From Gemmatimonadota bacterium (GTDB taxonomy: Bacteria > Gemmatimonadota > Gemmatimonadetes > Gemmatimonadales > GWC2-71-9), in NCBI GenBank assembly GCA_031382385.1, contig JANMYS010000026.1:3954-67953 (forward strand): a DNA stretch of 64,000 bases. The letters are read 5' to 3'. The translations under genes and the position numbers were made by a program. Positions 20,529 to 29,778 of this stretch are shown piece by piece (positions within the stretch are counted from its first letter, which is position 1; every line of letters begins with the position of its first letter). The notes under the pieces are model-generated. The model was not told the DNA's origin. It saw only the letters and a program-made list of their open reading frames with translations, and did no database searches.

Positions 20529-21542
20529 ATGTCCGACACACTCAAACTGGGCATCATCGGCGCCGGGGCAATCGCCCAGGTGGCCCACCTCCCCGTCCTC
20601 CGGAAGCTCAAGGGCGTGGATGTCGTCGCCATCTGCGACACCGACGTCGCCAAGGCCCGCGCACTCGGCACCCGTTTCGGGATCCGCGATGCCTTCAACG
20701 ATATCGAGGAGCTGCTGGAGTACGAGCAACTCGATGCCGTCGCGATCTGTACGCCGAACCACCTGCATGAGCCGCACGTGCTCGCCGCGCTGACTGCCGG
20801 TGTGCATGTGCTGGTCGAGCGGCCGCTCGCCTTCACCGCCCAGGGGGCACAGCGGATTCTCAAGCAGGCCGAGAAGCGGGGCAAACACCTGATGATCGGC
20901 ATGAATCACCGGTATCGCGCCGATGTGCAGATCGTGCGCAGCTTCATCCAGAGTGGCGAGCTGGGCCGCCTGGAGAGCGTCCGCGGCAGCTGGCACGTCT
21001 TCCGTCCCAGTCGCGCCCAGCTCGGCTGGCGCCAGCGGCGCGACGAGTCGGGCGGTGGCGCGATGCTCGACCTCGGAGAGACGATCCTGGATCTTGGCTT
21101 CTGGCTGGCCGGCAATCCGAAGCCGCTCCGGGTCAGCGCCAGCCTCCATGGCGGCGATGGCACGAAGGGCGGGGTGGAGCAGTCCGGCAGCGCCTTCGTG
21201 GTGTGCGAAGGGGGATTCTCGATCTTCCTCGATGTGACGTGGCATCACGTCGGTGAGGGCGAACGCTTCGGACTCGGGGTGAAGGCCAGCAAGGGAAGCG
21301 CCGGCATCAACCCGCTGCACGCCTGGAAGGAGCTGCACGGCGTACCGACCGACGTGGCGCCGACCGGATCGATCAGCCGGGAGAATGCCTTCACCGCCTC
21401 GTACCGCGCGGAGTGGGCCCACTTCCTGGGTGTCCTGCGGGGAGAGGCGAAACCGTTCGACAACCAGGAGCAGCTGACGCTGCACCGCGTGCTGGACGGG
21501 ATCTACAAGTCCTCGGCCGAGGGACGGGACGTCGAACTGTGA
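20529..21542 (+). CDS. Gfo/Idh/MocA family oxidoreductase
   Basis: 337 aa. Rossmann N-terminus LKLGIIGAGAIAQVAH, then AICTPNHLHEPH and LVERPLA. Confidence 0.85.
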   Translation: MSDTLKLGIIGAGAIAQVAHLPVLRKLKGVDVVAICDTDVAKARALGTRFGIRDAFNDIEELLEYEQLDAVAICTPNHLHEPHVLAALTAGVHVLVERPLAFTAQGAQRILKQAEKRGKHLMIGMNHRYRADVQIVRSFIQSGELGRLESVRGSWHVFRPSRAQLGWRQRRDESGGGAMLDLGETILDLGFWLAGNPKPLRVSASLHGGDGTKGGVEQSGSAFVVCEGGFSIFLDVTWHHVGEGERFGLGVKASKGSAGINPLHAWKELHGVPTDVAPTGSISRENAFTASYRAEWAHFLGVLRGEAKPFDNQEQLTLHRVLDGIYKSSAEGRDVEL

Positions 21543-21557
21543 GGGGGGCTGGGAGAC

Positions 21558-21652
21558 TGGGCGATTGGGCGATTGGGCGGGTAGGTCGGGCCTCCGTGCC
21601 CGACCGTCGATTAGGCGATTGGGCGATTGGGCGATTGGGCGGTTGGCTGATT
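21558..21652. repeat. Two blocks of the 8-bp microrepeat GGGCGATT (reverse complement of the 5680 unit) flanking an 8-bp-stem hairpin
   Basis: Block 1 is ctgggcgattgggcgattgggcgggtagg. The hairpin is ggtcgggc-ctccgt-gcccgacc (21584-21605). Block 2 is ttaggcgattgggcgattgggcgattgggcggttggctgattg. Block 2 overlaps the candidate start codons of the next gene. Confidence 0.9.
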
Positions 21653-22909
21653 GTCGCGCTGCTCTGCAGTGCCACTCCACTTTCCGCCAGTCAGGCGAGC
21701 GCCCGTCCGCCCGTCCGCCCGTCCGCCCCGCGCGTGGCCGAGCCCGGCTCCAATCTGCGCATCTCCATCCGCACCATGGGCCCCGGCGCCGACGTCTGGG
21801 AGCGCTTCGGGCACAACGCCATCGTGGTGGAAGACCAGGCCGGTGGCCGCCGGACGGCCTACAATTACGGGATGTTCAGTTTCCGGCAGGAGAACTTCAT
21901 CCTCCGCTTCATCCAGGGCCGGATGCACTACTGGATGGCCGGCTTTCCCGCTGAGGAGGATCTCGCCCGCTACGTCGCCGCTGGCCGCTGGGTACGGGAG
22001 CAGGAGCTGAACCTCACGCCGACGCAGCGCGCGGCGGTCCGCGACTACCTCGAGTGGAATGCCCTGCCGGAAAACCGCTTTTACCGCTACGACTATTTCC
22101 GGGACAACTGCTCCACCCGGGTCCGTGATGCCATCGACCAGGTGCTCGGCGGCGCGCTGCATGCCCAGAACCTGGACCCCGCCAGCGGGACCTTCCGCTT
22201 TCATACCCAGCGCCTCGTCGATAACAGCGTGCCGCTCTACACCGGGTTGCTGCTCGCCCTTGGGGCCGGTGTCGACCGGCCGCAGACCCGGTGGGATGAG
22301 ATGTTCCTGCCGTTCAAGCTCCATCAGTACCTGAGCACCGCGACGATCCGCGACGCCTCTGGTGCGGACATTCCGCTGGTCCTCCGCGAGCAGACGCTGT
22401 TTGAGAGTGATCGCTACCCCGTGCCCGAGGTTCCGCCCGACTGGTGGCCGGGCTACCTCGCGATGGGACTCCTGGTGGGGGGATTGCTCTGGTGGGGCGG
22501 GGTGGCGGGGAGAGCACGTGTTACGGCCAGGCGCACCATGCTGCTGCTCGGCACGTTCTGGGCGCTGTTGACCGGTGTCGCGGGGGCCATTCTCGCCGGA
22601 CTGTGGGCGTTGACCGACCATGTCGCCGCGGCAAACAATGAGAACGTGCTGCAGTGCTCGCTGCTTGCCCTGGCGCTGGCGTTCGTGTTGCCACCCGCGC
22701 TCCGCGACCGGAGCGGTCCACTGCGCGCGGCGCGGATGCTGGCGATGCTGGTCGGTGGGCTGTCGTTGCTGGGAGTGGTGCTGAAGGTGCTGCCGATGTT
22801 CCATCAGGTGAACGGGCAGGTGCTGGCCCTCACAGTTCCGGCCAACCTGGGGCTGGCACTCGGTGTCCTCGCCTGGGCGCGTGGCACTGGTGAATCTACA
22901 TTCGGCTGA
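21635..22909 (+). CDS. DUF4105 (Lnb N-terminal periplasmic domain) protein with a C-terminal multi-TM region
   Basis: Track ORF 21413..22909 overlaps the previous gene and reads through the repeats. I start it at TTG 21635 (M)GGWLIVALLCSATPLSASQA, a signal peptide. GTG 21596 is an alternative start. Motifs: GHNAIVVED, YNYGMFSF, YRYDYFRDNCSTRVRD. Confidence 0.65.
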   Translation: MGGWLIVALLCSATPLSASQASARPPVRPSAPRVAEPGSNLRISIRTMGPGADVWERFGHNAIVVEDQAGGRRTAYNYGMFSFRQENFILRFIQGRMHYWMAGFPAEEDLARYVAAGRWVREQELNLTPTQRAAVRDYLEWNALPENRFYRYDYFRDNCSTRVRDAIDQVLGGALHAQNLDPASGTFRFHTQRLVDNSVPLYTGLLLALGAGVDRPQTRWDEMFLPFKLHQYLSTATIRDASGADIPLVLREQTLFESDRYPVPEVPPDWWPGYLAMGLLVGGLLWWGGVAGRARVTARRTMLLLGTFWALLTGVAGAILAGLWALTDHVAAANNENVLQCSLLALALAFVLPPALRDRSGPLRAARMLAMLVGGLSLLGVVLKVLPMFHQVNGQVLALTVPANLGLALGVLAWARGTGESTFG

Positions 22910-22929: not shown

Positions 22930-24900
22930 CTACGGCCGATTCACCGCCAGGCTATCCCTCCGCCGTTCCGGCCGTTCCTCCCAGATCTTCGCCTCAACAA
23001 AGACCTTGAACAGCTCAGCGTCGAGCTGGCCCTGTTTCACCTCGTCGCCGAGAATGTCCAGGGCGCGAGTGGCCGGGAGGGCCCGCTTGTACGGCCGGTC
23101 CTGGGCTGTCAGCGCGTCATAGATGTCGGCGATCGTCATCATCCGGGTCTGCAGTGGAATGGCGTCGCCACCGACCTTTCTGGGGTAGCCCGCACCATTC
23201 AGCTTCTCGTGGTGGCCGCGAGCGATATGCGGCACCTGCGCCAGCCCCGCCGTCCACGGAATCTTCCGCAGGAACTCGTAGGTGTGGGAGACATGGCTCT
23301 CGATTTCCAGCCGCTCCCGCTCATCCAGGCTGCCCTTCCGGATGCTCAGCAGCCGTACCTCAGGGGCAGTGAGGAACGGCTGCTCGACCCCATCGGGATC
23401 GGTGTAGTGGCGAGCGGCAAATTCGCCGAGCAGCGCGAAGTCCCCTTCCGCCAGCACCGTCGGTTCATTGGCGGCCAGCACGACCTTGAGGAAGCGGTCG
23501 GCGGTCTCCAGCGACTCGCGGTGCGCCGCGTCCAGCGTCGCGAGGAACTCGTCGTAGCCCGCTCGCCCGTGAGTGGCCAGAAAGTCGGCCCGGGCCTTCT
23601 CGAATTCCCACTCCGTGCTGCGCCGGATGAACGCATGCCGCTGACGGACGATCACGAGGTCGCCCTCGTAGAGCTTCTTGGCCTTGACCAGCACCTGCTC
23701 CCGGACGCCCACCTTGCCAAAGTCATGCAGCAGTCCGGCGTAACGCAGCTCGCGCAGGTGTTCCCTGGTGAAGCTGATGTCCCGGAACGGGCCGTCCTGC
23801 AGCGCGTCGATCGCTTCCGCCAGCCCGACGGTGCGGGTCGCGACCCGTTCGGAGTGGCCTGAGGTGGTAGGATCGCGCTGCTCGATCGCATGAACCGAGG
23901 CCCGCACGAAGCCCTCGAACAGCCGCTCGATCGACTCATAGAGCTGGCTGTTCTCCACCGAGACCGCGGCCTGACCGGCCAGGGCCTTTACGATCTTCAC
24001 CGTGTGCGGACTGTAGGCGACGATCTGGCGAGTCGCCTCCTCCGGTGTGGTGAGCCGCGCTGCCGTATCCCGCTTGCGGTTGAGCAGTTGCAGGATCCCG
24101 ATCACGTCGCCGTGGTGGTTCTGCATCGGGATGACGAGCATCGACTTGGTGCGGTAGCCATAGCGCTCGTCGAACGACCGGTTGAACGAGTACTCGACAT
24201 CCGGCGGAAGCATGTACACATCCTCGATCACCAGCGCCTCACCCTCGGTGGCGGCGTAACCGGCCAGCGAAGCGTGATCGATCGGGATGGTGAATTCCAC
24301 CAGCGGGATATCCGGCCGACTGTCGTTCTGACTCAGTTTGAATCGCAGTCGCCGGGTGCCGAACTCGTCGGTCTCGGCGATGTACAGGCTGCCCGCGTCC
24401 GATTGCGTGACTCGGCGGGCCTGGCTCAGGATCAGCTCGAGGAGGCTGTCGAGGTTCTTTTCGGTCGTCAGCCGCACACCGATATCGGCCAGCTCGGTGA
24501 GGTCGTTCAGCCGGGCCGCGCTTTCGGCGCGTGCCTTTGTCTGTTCTCGATGGGAGGCGGAGACCCTGAATGCTGCCCGGAGCGCGACCAGCAGCTGGCG
24601 CGGGCCCACCGGGGCTTTCAGGAACCCGCTCAGGAGTTCGGCGGGGAGATCGGCGGGAATGTCGGCTTCGGCGGCATCGCCCAGGGCCAGCAGGGCGACG
24701 CCACCGTCGCGCAGCCCGGTGAGTAGCTGGGTGGTGACCTGTTGCCGGGCCGGCAGGTCGAGGAGGTAGGCGACCGGTCGGTCATCGGCACGGATTTCGG
24801 ACGGTGATGCCACGGCGCGCAGCTCCACCTGCTCGGCGGCGAGGGGAGCGGCCAGTTCCCCCGGCGACCAGGAGGGGGGGTGGAAGAGGAGGAACTTCAC
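22930..24900 (-). CDS. HD-GYP domain cyclic-di-GMP phosphodiesterase with a GAF domain and an N-terminal receiver-like region
   Basis: 656 aa. The GAF-like core is SDAGSLYIAE...MLVIPMQNHHGDVIGILQLLN. HD-GYP motifs: SGHSERV, LLHDFGKV, GHHEKLNGAGYP. The start overlaps the mlaD stop by 4 nt. Confidence 0.85.
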   Translation of the reverse strand: MKFLLFHPPSWSPGELAAPLAAEQVELRAVASPSEIRADDRPVAYLLDLPARQQVTTQLLTGLRDGGVALLALGDAAEADIPADLPAELLSGFLKAPVGPRQLLVALRAAFRVSASHREQTKARAESAARLNDLTELADIGVRLTTEKNLDSLLELILSQARRVTQSDAGSLYIAETDEFGTRRLRFKLSQNDSRPDIPLVEFTIPIDHASLAGYAATEGEALVIEDVYMLPPDVEYSFNRSFDERYGYRTKSMLVIPMQNHHGDVIGILQLLNRKRDTAARLTTPEEATRQIVAYSPHTVKIVKALAGQAAVSVENSQLYESIERLFEGFVRASVHAIEQRDPTTSGHSERVATRTVGLAEAIDALQDGPFRDISFTREHLRELRYAGLLHDFGKVGVREQVLVKAKKLYEGDLVIVRQRHAFIRRSTEWEFEKARADFLATHGRAGYDEFLATLDAAHRESLETADRFLKVVLAANEPTVLAEGDFALLGEFAARHYTDPDGVEQPFLTAPEVRLLSIRKGSLDERERLEIESHVSHTYEFLRKIPWTAGLAQVPHIARGHHEKLNGAGYPRKVGGDAIPLQTRMMTIADIYDALTAQDRPYKRALPATRALDILGDEVKQGQLDAELFKVFVEAKIWEERPERRRDSLAVNRP

Positions 24901-25832
24901 GGCTGCGACACCGGCAGGAGTGAATCCTGGGCGAGCGGGCGCACCCCGGTCACGAGCTTGTGCGGTCGGCGCGTGATCTCGTCGATGAAGTGATCGAGCT
25001 TCCGGCTCATGACATACATGTTGTTGAGCGTGCGCTTGATGTCCGGGCTCACATCCGTCGACAGCGCGGTCATGTGCGTCGTGAGCGAATCGACATCCTG
25101 CATCAGCCGGCGCGCTTCGGTCAGCGTTCCCAGCAGGGAATCCTGAAGCGTGCCCAGCCGCGCATCCGTGCTGCTGAGCATGCGTTGTGCCTGGGCAATC
25201 GTCGGCTGCATCTGGTCCAGTGTCTGTTGCGCGCTGGCGAGGGTCGCTCGAAGCGCGGGCGCGGTCGCCGTCATCTCCGACTGCGCGGTCGTCGCCGTCC
25301 GGTCGAGCGTCGAGAGCAGCTGGCGGGTGTCGCGCAGGATGCCGGAGACCTGGGTCCGCAGCGTGTCGGCCACTTCCTTCAGCACATCGGTCCAGCCCTG
25401 GGTCAGCGCTCCACGGATCGTGTCGCCCTCCACCAGCACCGCCTGGATGTCATTCTTGGGGACCACGAGCGCGATCGACGCACTGCCGATCAGGCCGGTC
25501 GACACGATCTCCCCCGCCGTGCCGAGCCGGAGCCGGATGGGAACGCCGTTGGCGAAGCGCTCACGGAGCCGCAACGCGACCAGGAATTCGGGCGGGCCCA
25601 TGGCAAGGCTGTCTCCCATCGGCGAGATCGCCGAAACCTCGCCGATGTTGAGGCCCTGCAGGAAGACCGGCGTGTCCTGCTTCAGGTCCTGGACCGAGGG
25701 GCTGCGCATGTAGATGGTGACCCGCCGTTCGGTCCAGCCGCGCGTCAGCACGATCGCCGTGAGGGCGACGGCAACGGCGCCGAGGACGAGGAGACCGATG
25801 AGGGCATCGGCGGAACGGGTGCGGAGAGTCAT
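24897..25832 (-). CDS. mlaD: MlaD/MCE-family substrate-binding protein with a long C-terminal coiled-coil region
   Basis: 311 aa with an N-terminal TM helix (ALIGLLVLGAVAVALTAIVL). The MCE domain reads VTIYMRSPSVQDLKQDTPVFLQGLNIGEVSAI. Confidence 0.8.
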   Translation of the reverse strand: MTLRTRSADALIGLLVLGAVAVALTAIVLTRGWTERRVTIYMRSPSVQDLKQDTPVFLQGLNIGEVSAISPMGDSLAMGPPEFLVALRLRERFANGVPIRLRLGTAGEIVSTGLIGSASIALVVPKNDIQAVLVEGDTIRGALTQGWTDVLKEVADTLRTQVSGILRDTRQLLSTLDRTATTAQSEMTATAPALRATLASAQQTLDQMQPTIAQAQRMLSSTDARLGTLQDSLLGTLTEARRLMQDVDSLTTHMTALSTDVSPDIKRTLNNMYVMSRKLDHFIDEITRRPHKLVTGVRPLAQDSLLPVSQP

Positions 25833-26539
25833 CGGATCGTTTCCATCTGCCCGCGAGCCAGCCGGATCTGCCGGTCCACCCGGCGCCGGAGCACGGCGGG
25901 CAGATCCGTGCCCGTGAGGAAAACCGTGCGCCGGGCGCCTTCGGCCGTCTCGCCGCCGCGGGCCGCCTCCAGCAGTTCGCCGGCAGCGCGCTCGGTGATG
26001 CCATCGAAGGGGTCTTCGAGGATGACGAGCTCGGGATCGAACGCCAGCGCGCGCCCGAGGGCGGTGCGACGGCGGTCTTCGGCTGTCGCCTGAGCCGGCC
26101 GGAGATCGCCCACGCGGGACAGTCGCAATTGGGCCAGGATCACGTCAACCCGTCCTTCGATGTCCTTGGGTCTGTAGTCGCTGCCGAAGCGGAGCGGGAG
26201 TCGGATGTTCTCGCGCAGCGTAAGATTCTGCATCAGCCCCTCGCCGGCGGGAAGGTATCCGAGCTTCCGGCGGAAGGCGAGCCGGGCCCGTCGCTCGAGG
26301 TGGGCCACTTCCGTCCCCAGGGTGAAGACGTGTCCGGACGGTGCGGTCTCGAGGCCCAGCGCGAGCCCGCCCAGCAGGTCCACGCCACTCTGCTCATCGC
26401 CCATGACCGCCACGGTTTCCCGGGCGGCGACCGTCAGGGTCAGCGTCGTGGCGAGGTCGATTCCTGACGGGGGTCCAGCCAGGGTGGAACGCTGGACCCG
26501 GCCGAGCGGAATGCCGTCGAATACCAGGGGCGCGGTCAT
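25829..26539 (-). CDS. ABC ATPase-like protein at the MlaF position, with degenerate catalytic motifs (probable pseudo-ATPase)
   Basis: 236 aa, collinear with ABC NBDs. Walker A reads GDEQSGVD (expected GxxxxGK[ST]). The Q-loop region reads LGYLPA. The signature reads ATAED (expected LSGGQ). Walker B reads LVILEDP (expected hhhhDEP). The H-loop reads FLTGTD, with no His. Confidence 0.7.
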   Translation of the reverse strand: MTAPLVFDGIPLGRVQRSTLAGPPSGIDLATTLTLTVAARETVAVMGDEQSGVDLLGGLALGLETAPSGHVFTLGTEVAHLERRARLAFRRKLGYLPAGEGLMQNLTLRENIRLPLRFGSDYRPKDIEGRVDVILAQLRLSRVGDLRPAQATAEDRRRTALGRALAFDPELVILEDPFDGITERAAGELLEAARGGETAEGARRTVFLTGTDLPAVLRRRVDRQIRLARGQMETIR

Positions 26540-27324
26540 GCCCGCAGCACGGCGACGATGATCGCTGCCAGCACGAAGATGACGGCGATCGAGCCGACCG
26601 TGCCGCGGATCACCGCCTGCGGAATCTCGGTCGGGCCACGCCGAACGGAGAGCCCTTCATAGCTCGGGATCAGTCCGATCACCAGTCCGAAAATGAGCCC
26701 CTTGATCGCTGTCAGGACGACGTCGAGCGTCGTCAGCTGGGCCAGCACGATGCTGAAGTACCGCGCCCCGCTCATCCCGCCGATCACGCCGGCGGCGAGA
26801 TAGCCGCCGCCGATAGCGATCACGTCGAACAGGATCATCAGCGTGCAGACCGAAACCACGCAGCCGAACAGGCGGGGCAGGACGAGGTAGTGGAACGGGT
26901 CGATTCCCATCCCTTCGAGGGCGCGCACCTCTCCGAGGACGGTGTTGGTGGCGAGTTCCGCGGCGATCGCGGTGCCGCTCCGGCCGACGATGGCCAGGGC
27001 GGTGAGCAGCGGCCCGAGCTCCCGCACGATCACGACGACCATGAGCTGCCCGATCAGTTCCGACGCCCCCACCTTGTCCAGCTGGGCGATGGCGCTGGAG
27101 ATGGTGAGGTAGCTCAGGACGGTCGACAGCAGGACGATCAGGCCGACGGCTTCAAGTGCGGTGAAGCGGAGCTGATTGAGCAGCACCCGCGCCGCCACCC
27201 GCCTGCCGGCGCCGGGCAGGCTGGGCAGCGAGCTGAAGGCCTCAAAAGCGAAGCGCGCCAGCGCGCCCACCCGGGCGAGCCAGCGCGCCGTCCCACGCCC
27301 AATGGCGGCGAGGAAATCGATCAC
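26536..27324 (-). CDS. mlaE: MlaE-family ABC transporter permease
   Basis: 262 aa. VIVRELGPLLTALAIVGRSGTAIAAELATNTVLGEVRALEGMGIDPFHYLVLPR is the hallmark MlaE segment. Multiple TM helices. Confidence 0.85.
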   Translation of the reverse strand: MIDFLAAIGRGTARWLARVGALARFAFEAFSSLPSLPGAGRRVAARVLLNQLRFTALEAVGLIVLLSTVLSYLTISSAIAQLDKVGASELIGQLMVVVIVRELGPLLTALAIVGRSGTAIAAELATNTVLGEVRALEGMGIDPFHYLVLPRLFGCVVSVCTLMILFDVIAIGGGYLAAGVIGGMSGARYFSIVLAQLTTLDVVLTAIKGLIFGLVIGLIPSYEGLSVRRGPTEIPQAVIRGTVGSIAVIFVLAAIIVAVLRA

Positions 27325-27328
27325 CGGC

Positions 27329-28054
27329 TCAGCCGCCGCTGATCTTCTTCAACCCCTCATTCGCCTCGGCGTAGTCGGGGAAGACATCAATGGCCTTGCG
27401 GTAGAACTCCGCGGCCTTCGTCTTGTCACCCCGATCCTGGTAGAGCAGGGCGCGGCTGTAGTAGGTGAGCGCCTCGGTGGGCACGTTGCGCGCCCGTACC
27501 GCGCGGCTCATCTCCGCGGTGAGTGCCGGCAGCTTCGTTTCGGCCATCAGCCGCTCCGCCACCGTCTGCAGCAGCTTGAACAGCTCTTCCCGCTTCTCGA
27601 ACTTGGGGTCGCTGCGGACCACCTTGAGGATTTCGCTGGTTTCGACATCGACAATGCGGGCATCGACCCGGAAACGGCCGTACAGGTCGACGAAGCTGCC
27701 CATCACCATGTACCGGGCGCCGACCAGCTTGCCGATCTTCGCGGCGGTTGCCGCATCGGCCCGGCCGTCCTTGCCGAGGTTCTGCTCGTCCAGCAGCCGC
27801 TGGACGCTGCTGCGGTCCACGATGCGCGCGGCGGGATTCTGGGCCAGCTCGCTGATGAGCATGCCGGCGATGCCCTTCTCCAGCGCTTCGAAATTTTCCT
27901 TGTCCTGCCCGTAGGAACCGCCGTTCTCGAACGGCATGACCGCGATGCCGGGACGGGAATCCTGCGCCTGGAGTGCCGGGAGCGCGGGCGATGTAAGCAG
28001 GGCCGCGAGAGCGAGCGCGAACAGCTGTCGAGACTGCATAGTGTTGTACCTCAT
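27329..28054 (-). CDS. Exported CsgG/LpoB-like domain protein with a C-terminal TPR segment
   Basis: 241 aa with signal peptide LFALALAALLTSPALPALQAQ. IAVMPFENGG...GIAGMLISEL...VDRSSVQRLLDEQNL...IGKLVGARYMVMGSF resembles CsgG-like periplasmic lipoprotein folds. The C-terminus ALTYYSRALLYQDRGDKTKAAEFYRKAIDVFPDYAEA is TPR-like. The ATG at 28054 overlaps the MBL stop (TGATG); the ATG at 28039 is an alternative. Confidence 0.55.
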   Translation of the reverse strand: MRYNTMQSRQLFALALAALLTSPALPALQAQDSRPGIAVMPFENGGSYGQDKENFEALEKGIAGMLISELAQNPAARIVDRSSVQRLLDEQNLGKDGRADAATAAKIGKLVGARYMVMGSFVDLYGRFRVDARIVDVETSEILKVVRSDPKFEKREELFKLLQTVAERLMAETKLPALTAEMSRAVRARNVPTEALTYYSRALLYQDRGDKTKAAEFYRKAIDVFPDYAEANEGLKKISGG

Positions 28055-28920
28055 CAGAGAGACAGGGCCATACCTTCCTTGGCCGCATCGACCACCAGGC
28101 CGGGCGCGTGGGCCGCGGCATAACTCCGGGCGCCGATCAGCATGGCGTCCACTGCACTGTCATCGTGTTCCGGCTCATGGTGAAACAGCACCAGCCGACG
28201 GCACCCCGCCTCGTGCGCCAGGTCAACCGCCTGTTCGGGGGTCGAATGCCCCCAGCCGGCCCGCGACTCGATCATGGCTTCGGAGTACATCCCGTCATGA
28301 ATCAACGTATCGACCCCCTGCAGGAATCTCACCAGTCCGGCCCGCCAGTCCGGTCCGACGTCGTAGCTGCCCCCGGTGCCAAGCTCGTTGTCGGTGATGT
28401 AGGCCATAGTCCGCCCGCCGCGCGCCGGGACCAGCTTGTAGCCCAGGGTGTTGCCCGGGTGCCGCAGCCGATAGGCTTCGACCAGAAATCCGTCGATCTC
28501 GAAGGTACCACTGACCACCTCGGTGATGGTCAAATCGGCCGTGAGCGCCTTCAACGGTACCGGGAACACAACCGGGTCCATCTGCCGGTCGAGGATCTCC
28601 TCCAGCGGGACGCCCGCTTGCGCGGCCCCGAAGATCCGCACCGTGTTCCCCTTGGTGTTCAGCGGCTGGAAGAACGGCAGCCCCTGAATGTGGTCCCAGT
28701 GGGTATGCGACAGCAGGATGTCCAGGTTCATGGCGCCGCTCGAGGCCCGCATCAGCTCGCGCCCCAGCAGCCGGATCCCGCTCCCCGCGTCGAGGATGAC
28801 CAGCTGGTCACGATTCCCGGAGACCGCGACGCAGGAGGTGTTTCCCCCGTAGCGCGCGGTATGGACGCCGGGTGTAGGAATCGACCCCCGGGTGCCCCAG
28901 AACGTGACAGTGTAGGTCAC
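28054..28920 (-). CDS. MBL-fold metallo-hydrolase
   Basis: 288 aa. VTFWGTRGSIPTPG, YGGNTSCVAV, and the metal-binding motif LLSHTHWDHIQG (HxHxDH). Confidence 0.8.
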   Translation of the reverse strand: MTYTVTFWGTRGSIPTPGVHTARYGGNTSCVAVSGNRDQLVILDAGSGIRLLGRELMRASSGAMNLDILLSHTHWDHIQGLPFFQPLNTKGNTVRIFGAAQAGVPLEEILDRQMDPVVFPVPLKALTADLTITEVVSGTFEIDGFLVEAYRLRHPGNTLGYKLVPARGGRTMAYITDNELGTGGSYDVGPDWRAGLVRFLQGVDTLIHDGMYSEAMIESRAGWGHSTPEQAVDLAHEAGCRRLVLFHHEPEHDDSAVDAMLIGARSYAAAHAPGLVVDAAKEGMALSL

Positions 28921-29007: not shown

Positions 29008-29685
29008 TCACGACCGCCCGGCGGCGCGCTCGAGCAGCGGGCGATTGACGATGGTGATTTCCTTGCGGCTGACCTGAATCAGGCCCCGCTCCACGAAATC
29101 CCGCATCGTCCGGGAGACGGTCTCCCGGCTCGATCCGATCATCTGCGCGATCACATGATGGGTGATCTTCTTCGTGACCATGTCACCGCCCTCCTCCTCG
29201 GCGAGGCGCAGGACCAGATCGGCCACCCGCCCGTTCACGTCGAGCAGTACCAGGCTGCCGATCTTCTCATCGGCCCGGCGCAGCCGGCGGGACAGCTCCC
29301 GCATGAGGGCGATCGCCACCTCCGGCGAGCTGCGGAGGCGGGCCTGGAAGTCTTCGCGCCGCAGCACCAGCACGGCGGCGTCGATCATGGCGATCACCGT
29401 GGCGGAGCGGGGCTGATCGTCGATCAGCGACATTTCGCCGAAGAAGCTGCCCTCGCCCAACACGGACAGGATGACCTCGCGACCGTCCTCCCCGATCAGA
29501 ACCACCTTGACCTGGCCGGAGGCCACGAGATAGAGCGCGTCGCCGGGATCGTCTTCGAAGACAATGACGCTCCCCTTCGGGTAGGTCCGTTCACGGACCA
29601 GCTCGGAGAAGGCGGTAATGTCACCCTCTCGCATAGTGGCAAAGAGCGGGACCTTCTTCAGTACCTCAAGCGGGCTGAGCGGCAA
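29008..29685 (-). CDS. Crp/Fnr family transcriptional regulator
   Basis: The cNMP-binding domain includes [22 protein letters not shown] and [17 protein letters not shown]. The HTH is [23 protein letters not shown]. The track start at 29859 adds 58 non-conserved codons and reaches to within 12 nt of the rpmE start. I prefer the in-frame TTG at 29685, which gives a typical family length of ~225 aa. Confidence 0.8.
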
Positions 29686-29778
29686 AGTGCCCTCAATGTT
29701 GTGGAAGTGTCGGTCCCTACGATACTTATGTCGTTTCAGCCTGTCAAACAGCCCCCACGGCACCAGTCGGGGGTGAGG

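Follow-up and report, generated by a model that had tools for sequence, protein, structure and literature searches.

Among described systems, the closest to the locus considered here are the MlaFEDB complexes of E. coli and A. baumannii, in which the MlaE permease and a protein with a single MCE domain are encoded together with a subunit of the ABC nucleotide-binding domain (NBD) fold, MlaF. In vitro, phospholipid exchange by MlaFEDB is bidirectional, ATP hydrolysis merely biasing it toward the retrograde direction, and the E. coli complex exchanges lipid spontaneously when ATP is withheld (Low, Thong and Chng 2021). How Mla and MCE systems move lipid, in which direction, and what ATP hydrolysis contributes are all still debated. 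In an NBD dimer each ATP site is built from the Walker A, Walker B and H-loop elements of one subunit and the signature motif of the other, and canonical transporters use the surface formed by the Q-loop and the start of the helical subdomain to hold the coupling helix of their membrane subunit. The PqiABC and LetAB (YebST) MCE systems are not known to contain an ATP-hydrolysing subunit. In heterodimeric ABC exporters one of the two sites is degenerate and still binds ATP tightly while the other site powers transport, the degenerate element having acquired a structural or regulatory role (PMC7756269).

The present locus lies in a 64-kb window (the whole stretch of Gemmatimonadota DNA that was analysed) and likewise encodes an MlaE-type permease and a single-domain MCE protein, together with an NBD-like subunit, here called pseudo-MlaF, in which every catalytic motif has been substituted. 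At least 161 species-level genomes share the locus, and database labels for such proteins read 'MlaF ATPase' or 'ATP-binding cassette domain-containing protein'. Surveys tallying Mla ATPases by domain match may thus misjudge these genes.

Gene cluster and its conservation

Seven genes on the minus strand make up the cluster (Table 1), in the order CRP-like regulator, MBL-fold hydrolase, CsgG/LpoB-like TPR protein, MlaE, pseudo-MlaF, MCE protein and REC-like GAF–HD-GYP protein, and with both an MlaE permease (PF02405) and an MCE-domain protein (PF02470) present the locus qualifies as an MCE/Mla-type system. Translation of the plus strand across the pseudo-MlaF interval is full of stops. The permease matches MlaE and YrbE1A in the PDB at 1e-21 to 1e-16, and the MCE protein consists of an N-terminal transmembrane segment, a single MCE domain and a long helical C-terminus. 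An ATGA overlap joins the MlaE stop codon to the pseudo-MlaF start and another joins the pseudo-MlaF stop to the MCE start; given these two overlaps and a gene order that does not vary among the genomes examined, pseudo-MlaF is produced jointly with MlaE and the MCE protein. The start of the HD-GYP gene in turn overlaps the MCE stop, and its product carries HD at residue 392 and HHEKLNGAGYP at residue 563. The CsgG/LpoB-like protein has no Cys and is therefore not a lipoprotein; for the CRP/FNR-family regulator, the longest ORF extends to 29859.

Conservation was followed in the best 80 of 161 matched Gemmatimonadota loci, 79 of which are complete. The seven-gene synteny is kept at every locus with a long enough contig. 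By tblastn, the HD-GYP gene lies 3' of the operon in 72/80 loci, and a motif scan finds it in 68/75 (misses being mostly contig ends). The CsgG/LpoB-like gene is syntenic in 73/80 (the remaining loci being contig ends), and the CRP-like regulator in 66/80. The expression signal is weak, contigs 85–95% similar over the operon being present in one sediment metatranscriptome only, where DNA carry-over cannot be excluded.

Table 1. Coordinates of the cluster genes, a promoter match and the motif positions of pseudo-MlaF, numbered along the window
Feature	Position	Strand	Remarks
REC-like + GAF + HD-GYP protein	22930..24900	-	Pfam HD_5 1e-29, GAF 2e-14; final cluster gene
MCE (MlaD-like) protein	24897..25832	-	311 aa; Pfam MlaD (PF02470) 30.9 bits vs cut-off 25.1; TIGR00996 2e-12
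Pseudo-MlaF (ABC NBD fold, all catalytic motifs replaced)	25829..26539	-	236 aa, ATG start
Ex-H-loop FLTGTD	25904..25921	-	residues 207-212; His to Asp
D-loop FDGIT	25994..26008	-	directly after ex-Walker B
Ex-Walker B LVILEDP	26009..26029	-	residues 171-177
Ex-signature ATAED	26075..26089	-	residues 151-155; instead of LSGGQ
Ex-Q-loop LGYLPA	26246..26263	-	residues 93-98; Gln to Ala
Pseudo-Walker A GDEQSGVD	26378..26401	-	residues 47-54; Lys to Val, Ser/Thr to Asp; Gly-x4-Gly frame intact
MlaE-type permease	26536..27324	-	262 aa; Pfam MlaE (PF02405) 9e-54, 182.7 bits
CsgG-N/LpoB-like + TPR protein, secreted	27329..28054	-	Pfam CsgG 6e-19, TPR_1; signal peptide
MBL-fold hydrolase (Lactamase_B_2, RNase Z-like)	28054..28920	-	second gene in conserved cluster; syntenic
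CRP/FNR-family regulator (cNMP-binding + HTH_Crp_2)	29008..29685	-	likely start TTG 29685
Sigma-70-like promoter match TTGACA-17-TATCGT	29719..29747	-	upstream of cluster; consensus match only

Fold, catalytic motifs and selection

An earlier note on this DNA had described the 236-residue protein as collinear with ABC NBDs, and phmmer, hhalign and fold comparison all bear this out. Pfam ABC_tran (PF00005) matches at 38.9 bits (cut-off 25) over model positions 3–136 of 137. The NCBIfam MlaF model (NF008809) gives 50 bits and fails to reach its cut-off of 441, the top NCBIfam match being LolD at 67 bits against a cut-off of 360. With phmmer, pseudo-MlaF aligns to LolD in the PDB with few gaps (E 1e-17), and a profile-profile comparison (hhalign) between the family and 22 canonical NBDs returns a single collinear block in unshifted register (probability 100%, E 1.8e-41). 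An AF2 model (pLDDT 88) resembles LolD, MacB and MlaF in Foldseek at TM of about 0.8, with LolD at E 1e-17 and TM 0.83. Judged by alignment and model, then, pseudo-MlaF retains the NBD fold, a RecA-like core plus helical subdomain.

Within this fold, the LolD alignment pairs GDEQSGVD with GSSGSGKS, A98 with the Q-loop Gln, ATAED with LSGGE, ED with DE, and D212 with the H-loop His. The losses read in the earlier note from the single sequence, namely of Lys and Ser/Thr from Walker A, of the Q-loop Gln, of the LSGGQ signature and of the H-loop His, are thereby placed at the canonical positions, and they recur throughout the 80 orthologues. The Walker A Lys position is occupied by Val in 68, Leu in 7, Ile in 4 and Ala in 1, and the adjoining Ser/Thr position by Asp in 53, Gly in 16 and Asn in 5, with Thr in just 2; the Q-loop Gln is Ala in 79/80. 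The signature reads [ATS]-N-[AE]-E-[ED] across the family, Glu replacing its second Gly in 80/80, and the H-loop position carries Asp (41), Glu (28) or Ser (6) and never His. The exchange of Asp and Glu claimed for Walker B survives only in part: LVILEDP is present as described, and 77/80 orthologues have Glu in place of the Walker B Asp, but the catalytic Glu position is Gln in 46, Glu in 23 and Asp in 9, and the swap proper is limited to the present sequence and a minority of relatives.

The backbone frame of the P-loop (G47, S51, G52) is preserved, and the site is lined by conserved acidic and Arg residues. The A-loop aromatic is apparently missing, although this rests on inspection of the LolD alignment for one sequence only. 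Pseudo-MlaF contains two Lys residues (the orthologue median is one), and a search of the orthologue alignment columns for a conserved Lys found no such column. Canonical motifs are absent from all 79 complete orthologues and from 4 divergent members (45–55% identity). A relocation of the motifs, or a shifted register that would place the canonical Lys and Glu elsewhere in the protein, was considered and rejected on the strength of phmmer, hhalign and the column counts.

Conservation is higher at the substituted motif positions (entropy 0.70) than in the remaining protein (1.24). That the replacing residues are conserved speaks for a function, whether retained or newly gained, and not for relaxed constraint. 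The most conserved part of the family is the ex-Q-loop with the stretch that follows it, where the entropy of residues 94–101 is 0.20 as against 1.24 at non-motif positions; together with the start of the helical subdomain it reads GYLPAGDGLLQNL[ST]LRDN.

The pseudo-MlaF gene is under purifying selection. All 79 complete orthologues are intact, with ORFs of 219–246 aa, which removes the frameshifted decay that the earlier note had named as a possible refutation, and the dN/dS estimate it had proposed gives about 0.06–0.23 for close pairs, a median of 0.09 over unsaturated pairs, and values below 0.56 in all 900 sampled pairs. The neighbours in the same genomes are similar, at 0.01–0.15 for MlaE and 0.10–0.38 for the MCE gene. 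The inference of a catalytically dead subunit maintained as an intact, translationally coupled ORF thus gains support from motif loss, the ATGA overlaps and selection alike, with inactivity toward ATP remaining a deduction from sequence.

Possible roles of pseudo-MlaF

Given what is established about ABC transporters, the motif replacements lead to the inference that pseudo-MlaF is unable to bind or hydrolyse ATP in the canonical manner. With all the residues for ATP binding and burning lost, this envelope machine probably works, or signals, without its usual energy source. The favoured reading, to which we assign a probability of roughly 0.68 in the absence of any biochemistry, is that pseudo-MlaF is a non-catalytic pseudo-ATPase serving as a cap or scaffold, or as a regulator, in an MlaE–MCE complex independent of ATP hydrolysis. 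A cytoplasmic cap is suggested because the fold is kept, the three proteins are co-produced, the gene is under purifying selection, the motifs are lost and the ex-Q-loop surface is conserved. That it associates with MlaE is an inference from gene order and from this conserved docking surface; the complex would presumably adopt an MlaFEDB-like 2:2:6 stoichiometry, in which pseudo-MlaF would keep the two MlaE subunits joined as a dimer and perhaps determine the conformation of that dimer. As the subunit would contribute no ATP energy, hydrophobic cargo would move by equilibration and not by active pumping. Control of activity would probably lie at another level, the operon being fixed within a second-messenger module formed by the upstream CRP-like regulator and the downstream GAF–HD-GYP phosphodiesterase. 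Another ligand or a metal could occupy the former ATP site and matter functionally, and the tight linkage to a c-di-GMP enzyme means that the subunit may be a regulator or sensor, not a passive scaffold.

Carried further, this last thought becomes a separate explanation, unlikely as matters stand, in which the former ATP pocket has become a binding site for a metal, for a partner protein or for a second messenger, either c-di-GMP or a cyclic mononucleotide, and pseudo-MlaF either switches the MlaE–MCE complex or reports its state to the co-transcribed HD-GYP enzyme. Both explanations regard the subunit as dead as an ATPase, and they differ in that the sensor makes ligand binding the purpose of the conserved pocket; there are no binding data. 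The conservation of substituted pocket residues, which do not drift, is in keeping with a sensor, as are the CRP-family regulator at the head of the cluster and the regular presence of the HD-GYP gene after the operon. A sister family (P0145) adjoins a GAF-GAF-GGDEF gene in 3/3 contigs, against a background beside canonical NBDs of 8/127 for GGDEF and 0/127 for HD-GYP. However, no known c-di-GMP motif is recognised, the acidic P-loop residues vary in divergent members (GPEASGVD, GSDNSGVG, GEED-APLG), and only about two independent lineages stand behind the synteny argument. In addition, the N-terminus of the HD-GYP protein looks REC-like, unlike the STAS protein MlaB that binds MlaF. The fixed linkage to HD-GYP and GGDEF genes suggests a connection, so far unexplored, between lipid transport in the envelope and c-di-GMP signalling. 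At its most speculative, and with rather little weight placed on it, this would make MlaE, pseudo-NBD and MCE protein an ABC chassis turned into a trans-envelope signalling device, and recurrent pseudo-MlaF an unrecognised ATP-independent class of MCE systems. In such a device MlaE and the MCE protein would detect a lipid or the condition of the envelope, and the ATP-blind pseudo-NBD would relay to c-di-GMP metabolism or be controlled by it, either because its rebuilt pocket binds c-di-GMP or because the co-transcribed REC-like GAF–HD-GYP enzyme docks on it.

It is also conceivable, if improbable, that pseudo-MlaF pairs with a canonical MlaF encoded elsewhere, one partner of the heterodimer then supplying ATPase activity. 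In a published survey, Gemmatimonadota genomes are listed with two to four MlaE/MlaD copies, some with a clustered ABC ATPase, and paralogous systems may therefore exist, although canonical and degenerate ATPases cannot be told apart in the table reporting them (Grasekamp et al.). Against such pairing, both halves of pseudo-MlaF are degenerate, and a heterodimer would therefore be left without any consensus site; moreover, MlaE and MCE genes of its own accompany the gene one to one, and it is translationally coupled to them. No ORF of the 64-kb window contains both Walker A and signature motif, and no canonical ABC NBD was found within 10 kb on either side of the 79 loci (1.26 Mb in total) with motif patterns that detected 19/21 positive controls, the remaining genome being outside this scope so that a canonical MlaF elsewhere, acting alongside pseudo-MlaF or in its stead, is not excluded. 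Wider genome scans with generic patterns returned, among the matches listed, mostly proteobacterial MlaF; the additional Gemmatimonadota matches among them, L230 and L250, are ABC-2/DrrA-type ATPases not situated beside MlaE.

Still harder to credit is a non-canonical catalysis, in which nucleotide would be bound and hydrolysed by other residues, for instance with Arg standing in for the Walker A Lys and the metal coordinated by Glu175. The P-loop glycines and Ser51 are kept, many Arg residues are invariant, and Glu is common at the Walker B Asp position and occurs at the catalytic position in 23/80. Yet the Lys position is filled by Val, Leu or Ile and the Ser/Thr position by Asp, Gly or Asn, the Q-loop Gln, the H-loop His and apparently the A-loop aromatic are wanting, the invariant Glu at the second signature Gly would clash with the gamma-phosphate, and the Gln most often present at the catalytic position is the classic hydrolysis-dead substitution. 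That the gene is a pseudogene in decay, or merely an artefact of annotating a GC-rich genome, might be suspected from the low Pfam score and from the many spurious ORFs that a window of 65–72% G+C produces, but this can be dismissed in view of the intact orthologues, dN/dS well below 1, a confident AF2 fold and invariant synteny.

Related families and known systems

Degenerate MlaF-like proteins are not confined to the family described here. Five others (P0145, P0154, P0156, P0148 and P0146) lie directly after MlaE, with the catalytic motifs missing in part or altogether, and they precede an MlaD/MCE gene in 4/4 cases with an identifiable downstream gene, that of P0146 not being identifiable. 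P0145, the sister family beside a GAF-GGDEF cyclase and Gemmatimonadota by the database label of one member, is equally degenerate and resembles the pseudo-MlaF family in having Glu for the Walker B Asp and T-x-Q in the H-loop region. The replacement residues of these other families (e.g., VESEWxAR, GYLFHNSG, LIEH..EGQCL) differ from those of pseudo-MlaF, and so do the neighbours. In P0140 and P0148 Walker A is kept, and only the signature, catalytic Glu and His are lost. One member of P0154 is labelled Spirochaetota. Pseudo-MlaF would on this evidence have arisen several times, in two Gemmatimonadota families, one of Spirochaetota and others, the neighbour-joining tree of the MlaF family being only indicative for independent degenerations. 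In the literature searched, no account was found of an MCE system carrying a pseudo-NBD or a fully degenerate MlaF, and none of these families is described there. An Mla-type complex with a wholly and stably inactivated ATPase would be a natural test case for MlaE/MCE function without ATP, and could reveal a non-hydrolytic need for the NBD in assembly, gating or regulation.

In the comparison with MlaFEDB, the Foldseek TM between MlaF and pseudo-MlaF is about 0.8–0.84 (6xbd_I, 6xgy_A). MlaF, however, is a canonical active ATPase, while pseudo-MlaF has had all its catalytic motifs replaced; MlaF has 269 aa and a C-terminal extension, running about 60 residues past the aligned core, and pseudo-MlaF ends after 19. 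The operons differ in the E-F-D gene order of the Gemmatimonadota cluster, in the long helical tail of its MCE protein and in the CRP/HD-GYP setting. MlaFEDB includes the STAS protein MlaB, and the Gemmatimonadota cluster has no MlaB/STAS gene, no STAS domain having been found in the Pfam-scanned cluster genes. The N-terminus of the HD-GYP protein was considered as an MlaB-like STAS partner and this found no support. Pfam finds nothing there, and a homologue search yielded only 5 sequences; a shallow AF2 model of the region (pLDDT 72) gives weak REC-domain matches (E 6e-3 to 0.1).

The heterodimeric ABC exporters (TM287/288, TmrAB, TAP1/2, CFTR, ABCC1, PatAB, Rv1273c/72c) also show a non-consensus catalytic Glu, signature and H-loop, but their arrangement with one degenerate site is not met here, where there is one NBD gene per operon and both Walker A and signature are lost. 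Since pseudo-MlaF is presumably homodimeric and lacks Walker A too, both of its sites would be dead and nucleotide-free. PqiAB and LetAB, for their part, combine membrane proteins of the PqiA/LetA type with multi-MCE-domain proteins and have no NBD-like subunit, whereas the pseudo-MlaF system retains the MlaE and NBD chassis with a single MCE domain, its NBD inactivated.

Motif register and replaced residues

The pseudo-NBD, a 236-aa protein, is encoded between genes for an MlaE permease and an MCE/MlaD-like protein, in a window of 65-72% G+C. Its nearest relatives all come from Gemmatimonadota/Gemmatimonadales MAGs, and near-identical DNA is present in freshwater-sediment metagenomes. Pfam ABC_tran matches it with only 38.9 bits, and the NCBIfam scores for LolD and MlaF are 67 and 50 bits (cut-offs 360 and 441, respectively). 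The motif register is identical in a phmmer alignment to solved LolD (E 1e-17) and in a profile-profile alignment of the family, comprising the pseudo-NBD and its Gemmatimonadota orthologues, with 22 canonical NBDs (probability 100%, E 1.8e-41, a single collinear block). A confident AlphaFold2 model computed from 41 family sequences (pLDDT 88, pTM 0.87) was placed by Foldseek on LolD, MacB, YbbA, FtsE and MlaF at a TM of about 0.8. These comparisons bear out the earlier note, which had claimed from the sequence alone that the protein is collinear with NBDs and deviates at all catalytic motifs.

Specifically, Walker A (GxxGxGK[ST]) is replaced by GDEQSGVD (residues 47-54), the Q-loop Gln by Ala (98), the LSGGQ signature by ATAED (151-155), the Walker B D-E by E-D (175-176), and the H-loop His by Asp (212). 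A relocated Walker lysine is excluded, since the protein contains two Lys residues, the orthologue median is one, and no alignment column holds a conserved Lys. The proposed swap of the Walker B acidic residues holds for this sequence and a minority of relatives, not family-wide: among the best 80 of 161 matched genomes the Asp position is Glu in 77, and the catalytic position is most often Gln (46, against 23 Glu and 9 Asp).

Coordinates of the gene cluster, nearby features and related loci
Feature	Position	Strand	Remarks
CRP-family regulator	29008-29685	minus	cluster gene 1; cNMP-binding + HTH
MBL-fold hydrolase			cluster gene 2
CsgG-N/LpoB-like + TPR protein	27329-28054	minus	cluster gene 3, upstream of MlaE
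MlaE permease	26536-27324	minus	cluster gene 4; Pfam 9e-54
Pseudo-NBD	25829-26539	minus	cluster gene 5
MCE/MlaD-like protein	24897-25832	minus	cluster gene 6
MCE C-terminal ~110 aa	24900-25235	minus	helical
HD-GYP protein	22930-24900	minus	cluster gene 7 (last); REC-like N-terminus (weak) + GAF + HD-GYP
Lnb_N/5TMH_Lnb membrane protein ORF	21413-22909	plus
8-bp tandem arrays	21550-21653; 21700-21728
P0145 sister family (P0145, P0293-P0321)	L176:3171-5727; L259:4984-9718; L261:5007-9742		MlaE-x-MlaD-AP_endonuc_2 operons on related contigs
Other degenerate or half-degenerate NBD families	L093:4185-6714; L094:2-1985; L095:5216-7703; L178:187-2053		after MlaE on related contigs; MlaD next in L093, L094, L095

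Conservation and the search for a canonical NBD

When one genome per GTDB species was scanned by pattern, 161 proved to encode a relative of the pseudo-NBD, and the best 80 of these are all Gemmatimonadota. Within these 80, each of the 79 orthologues that are not truncated at a contig end has an intact reading frame (219-246 aa), and no canonical motif was found in any of the 79; four divergent members (45-55% identity) are equally degenerate. Pairwise Nei-Gojobori dN/dS over five genomes is 0.06-0.23 for the pseudo-NBD, 0.01-0.15 for MlaE and 0.10-0.38 for MCE, and over 900 random orthologue pairs it never reaches 0.56 (about 0.09 with unsaturated dS), consistent with purifying selection. The substituted motif positions have a mean column entropy of 0.70 versus 1.24 for the rest of the protein, and the former Q-loop stretch GYLPAGDG is near-invariant (0.20). 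Intact orthologues, low dN/dS and conserved replaced positions rule out pseudogene decay. The suggestion that the ORF is maintained intact and translationally coupled is likewise upheld, with ATGA overlaps at both junctions. Evidence for transcription of the operon is weak (85-95% similar contigs in one sediment metatranscriptome).

A Walker A plus signature regex detected no canonical ABC NBD in the window, and a stricter regex, which added Walker B DEP and picked up 19 of 21 canonical controls, detected none within ±10 kb of the 79 loci (1.26 Mb in total). In a published survey (Grasekamp et al. 2023, PMC10665443), Gemmatimonadetes genomes carry 1-4 copies each of MlaE/MlaD. Its Supplementary Data 1, in which canonical and degenerate NBDs are not told apart, lists two MlaE and two MlaD without an in-cluster MlaF/ATPase for both Gemmatimonas aurantiaca T-27 and G. 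phototrophica, and MlaE and MlaD of T-27 have consecutive accession numbers, so that some Gemmatimonadota MlaE-MlaD pairs may lack any NBD gene.

Genomic surroundings and degenerate relatives

Wherever the contig of a related locus reaches far enough, the content, order and orientation of the seven-gene cluster are the same. Second-messenger genes, the CRP-family regulator first and the HD-GYP gene last, frame the MCE operon, with a sigma-70-like promoter match (consensus only) immediately 5' of the likely CRP start. The HD-GYP domain is intact (HD and HHEKLNGAGYP, for HHExxNGxGYP) and follows a weak REC-like, pseudo-receiver fold modelled with low confidence; an MlaB-like STAS domain was sought in this protein without support. 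An HD-GYP gene lies near the family pseudo-NBD at 68 of 75 loci, compared with none of 127 control loci around canonical NBDs, eight of which have a GGDEF ORF. These counts are not phylogenetically independent, and the link is in effect seen in two lineages. Judged by its sequence, the CsgG-N/LpoB-like + TPR protein is soluble and periplasmic rather than a lipoprotein, despite lipoprotein-family Pfam matches, since it carries a signal peptide and lacks cysteine. The C-terminal part of MCE is about 18-60% identical (30-residue windows) to that of L005/L031, an otherwise near-identical relative whose other cluster genes are 92-99% identical, and has the look of a periplasmic tip that is swapped or mosaic. 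In the interval from a GFO/IDH/MocA oxidoreductase gene to the probable start of the Lnb_N/5TMH_Lnb protein there are short tandem arrays with 8-bp units, (CGATTGGG)n and (CGCCCGTC)n.

Only nine clusters at E<1e-30 came out of an exhaustive HMMER search over 1.84 billion representatives, and the family is therefore compact. Many of the next-best single-domain matches are partly or wholly degenerate NBDs, which a rough NJ tree places outside the fully canonical LolD/MacB-like block. In every readable context these lie directly 3' of MlaE, and the identifiable downstream gene is MlaD (homologues P0145, P0148, P0154, with one member labelled Spirochaetota, and P0156; the gene following P0146 has no domain call). 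The nearest outgroup, the P0145 family, one member of which NCBI labels Gemmatimonadota, is wholly degenerate (V[ED]SEWxAR, GYLFHNSG, LD[ED]xSRKR, ILEDP, TSQGL), has Glu in place of the Walker B Asp, as does the pseudo-NBD family, and adjoins a divergently transcribed GAF-GAF-GGDEF gene in all three contigs. The families at L093, L094, L095 and L178 appear independent. P0140 and P0148 keep Walker A and have lost the signature, catalytic Glu and His. In full-text literature searches, no account of a completely degenerate MlaF came up.

A probable pseudo-ATPase in an Mla/MCE-type system

In ABC NBDs the β/γ-phosphates and Mg2+ are held by Lys and Ser/Thr of Walker A, and the γ-phosphate is enclosed by the signature that the opposite subunit contributes. 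The Glu following Walker B serves as catalytic base (E-to-Q being the standard hydrolysis-dead mutant), and the H-loop His is the linchpin. Contact with the membrane subunit, at its coupling helix, is made through the Q-loop and the helical subdomain. In the pseudo-NBD all phosphate- and catalysis-related residues are lost, with Glu at the second signature Gly, and the best conserved part is the membrane-subunit-contact stretch. The best-supported reading, to which we assign a probability of about 0.68, is for these reasons a non-catalytic NBD that would cap the MlaE dimer without supplying ATP energy. The complex that it would form with MlaE and MCE would act by equilibration. Such a mode is consistent with MCE systems that lack an ATPase altogether, PqiAB and LetAB. 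It also fits E. coli MlaFEDB, in which phospholipid exchange is spontaneous, ATP-independent and bidirectional (Low, Thong and Chng 2021). On sequence evidence, ahead of any biochemistry, the protein is a genuine and strongly conserved pseudo-ATPase subunit belonging to an Mla/MCE-type system, a finding relevant to work on lipid transport and on ABC proteins.

A role in regulation or ligand sensing, to which the conservation of the pocket residues and the fixed link with c-di-GMP enzymes lend some weight, is a distinctly weaker contender in the absence of binding data. Heterodimerisation with a canonical MlaF encoded beyond the window and ±10 kb flanks is improbable, as each composite site is degenerate in both of its halves; in heterodimeric exporters, by contrast, degenerate sites still bind ATP and depend on a second, active site (PMC7756269). 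Non-canonical catalysis by the pseudo-NBD is less likely still, and gene decay can be dismissed.
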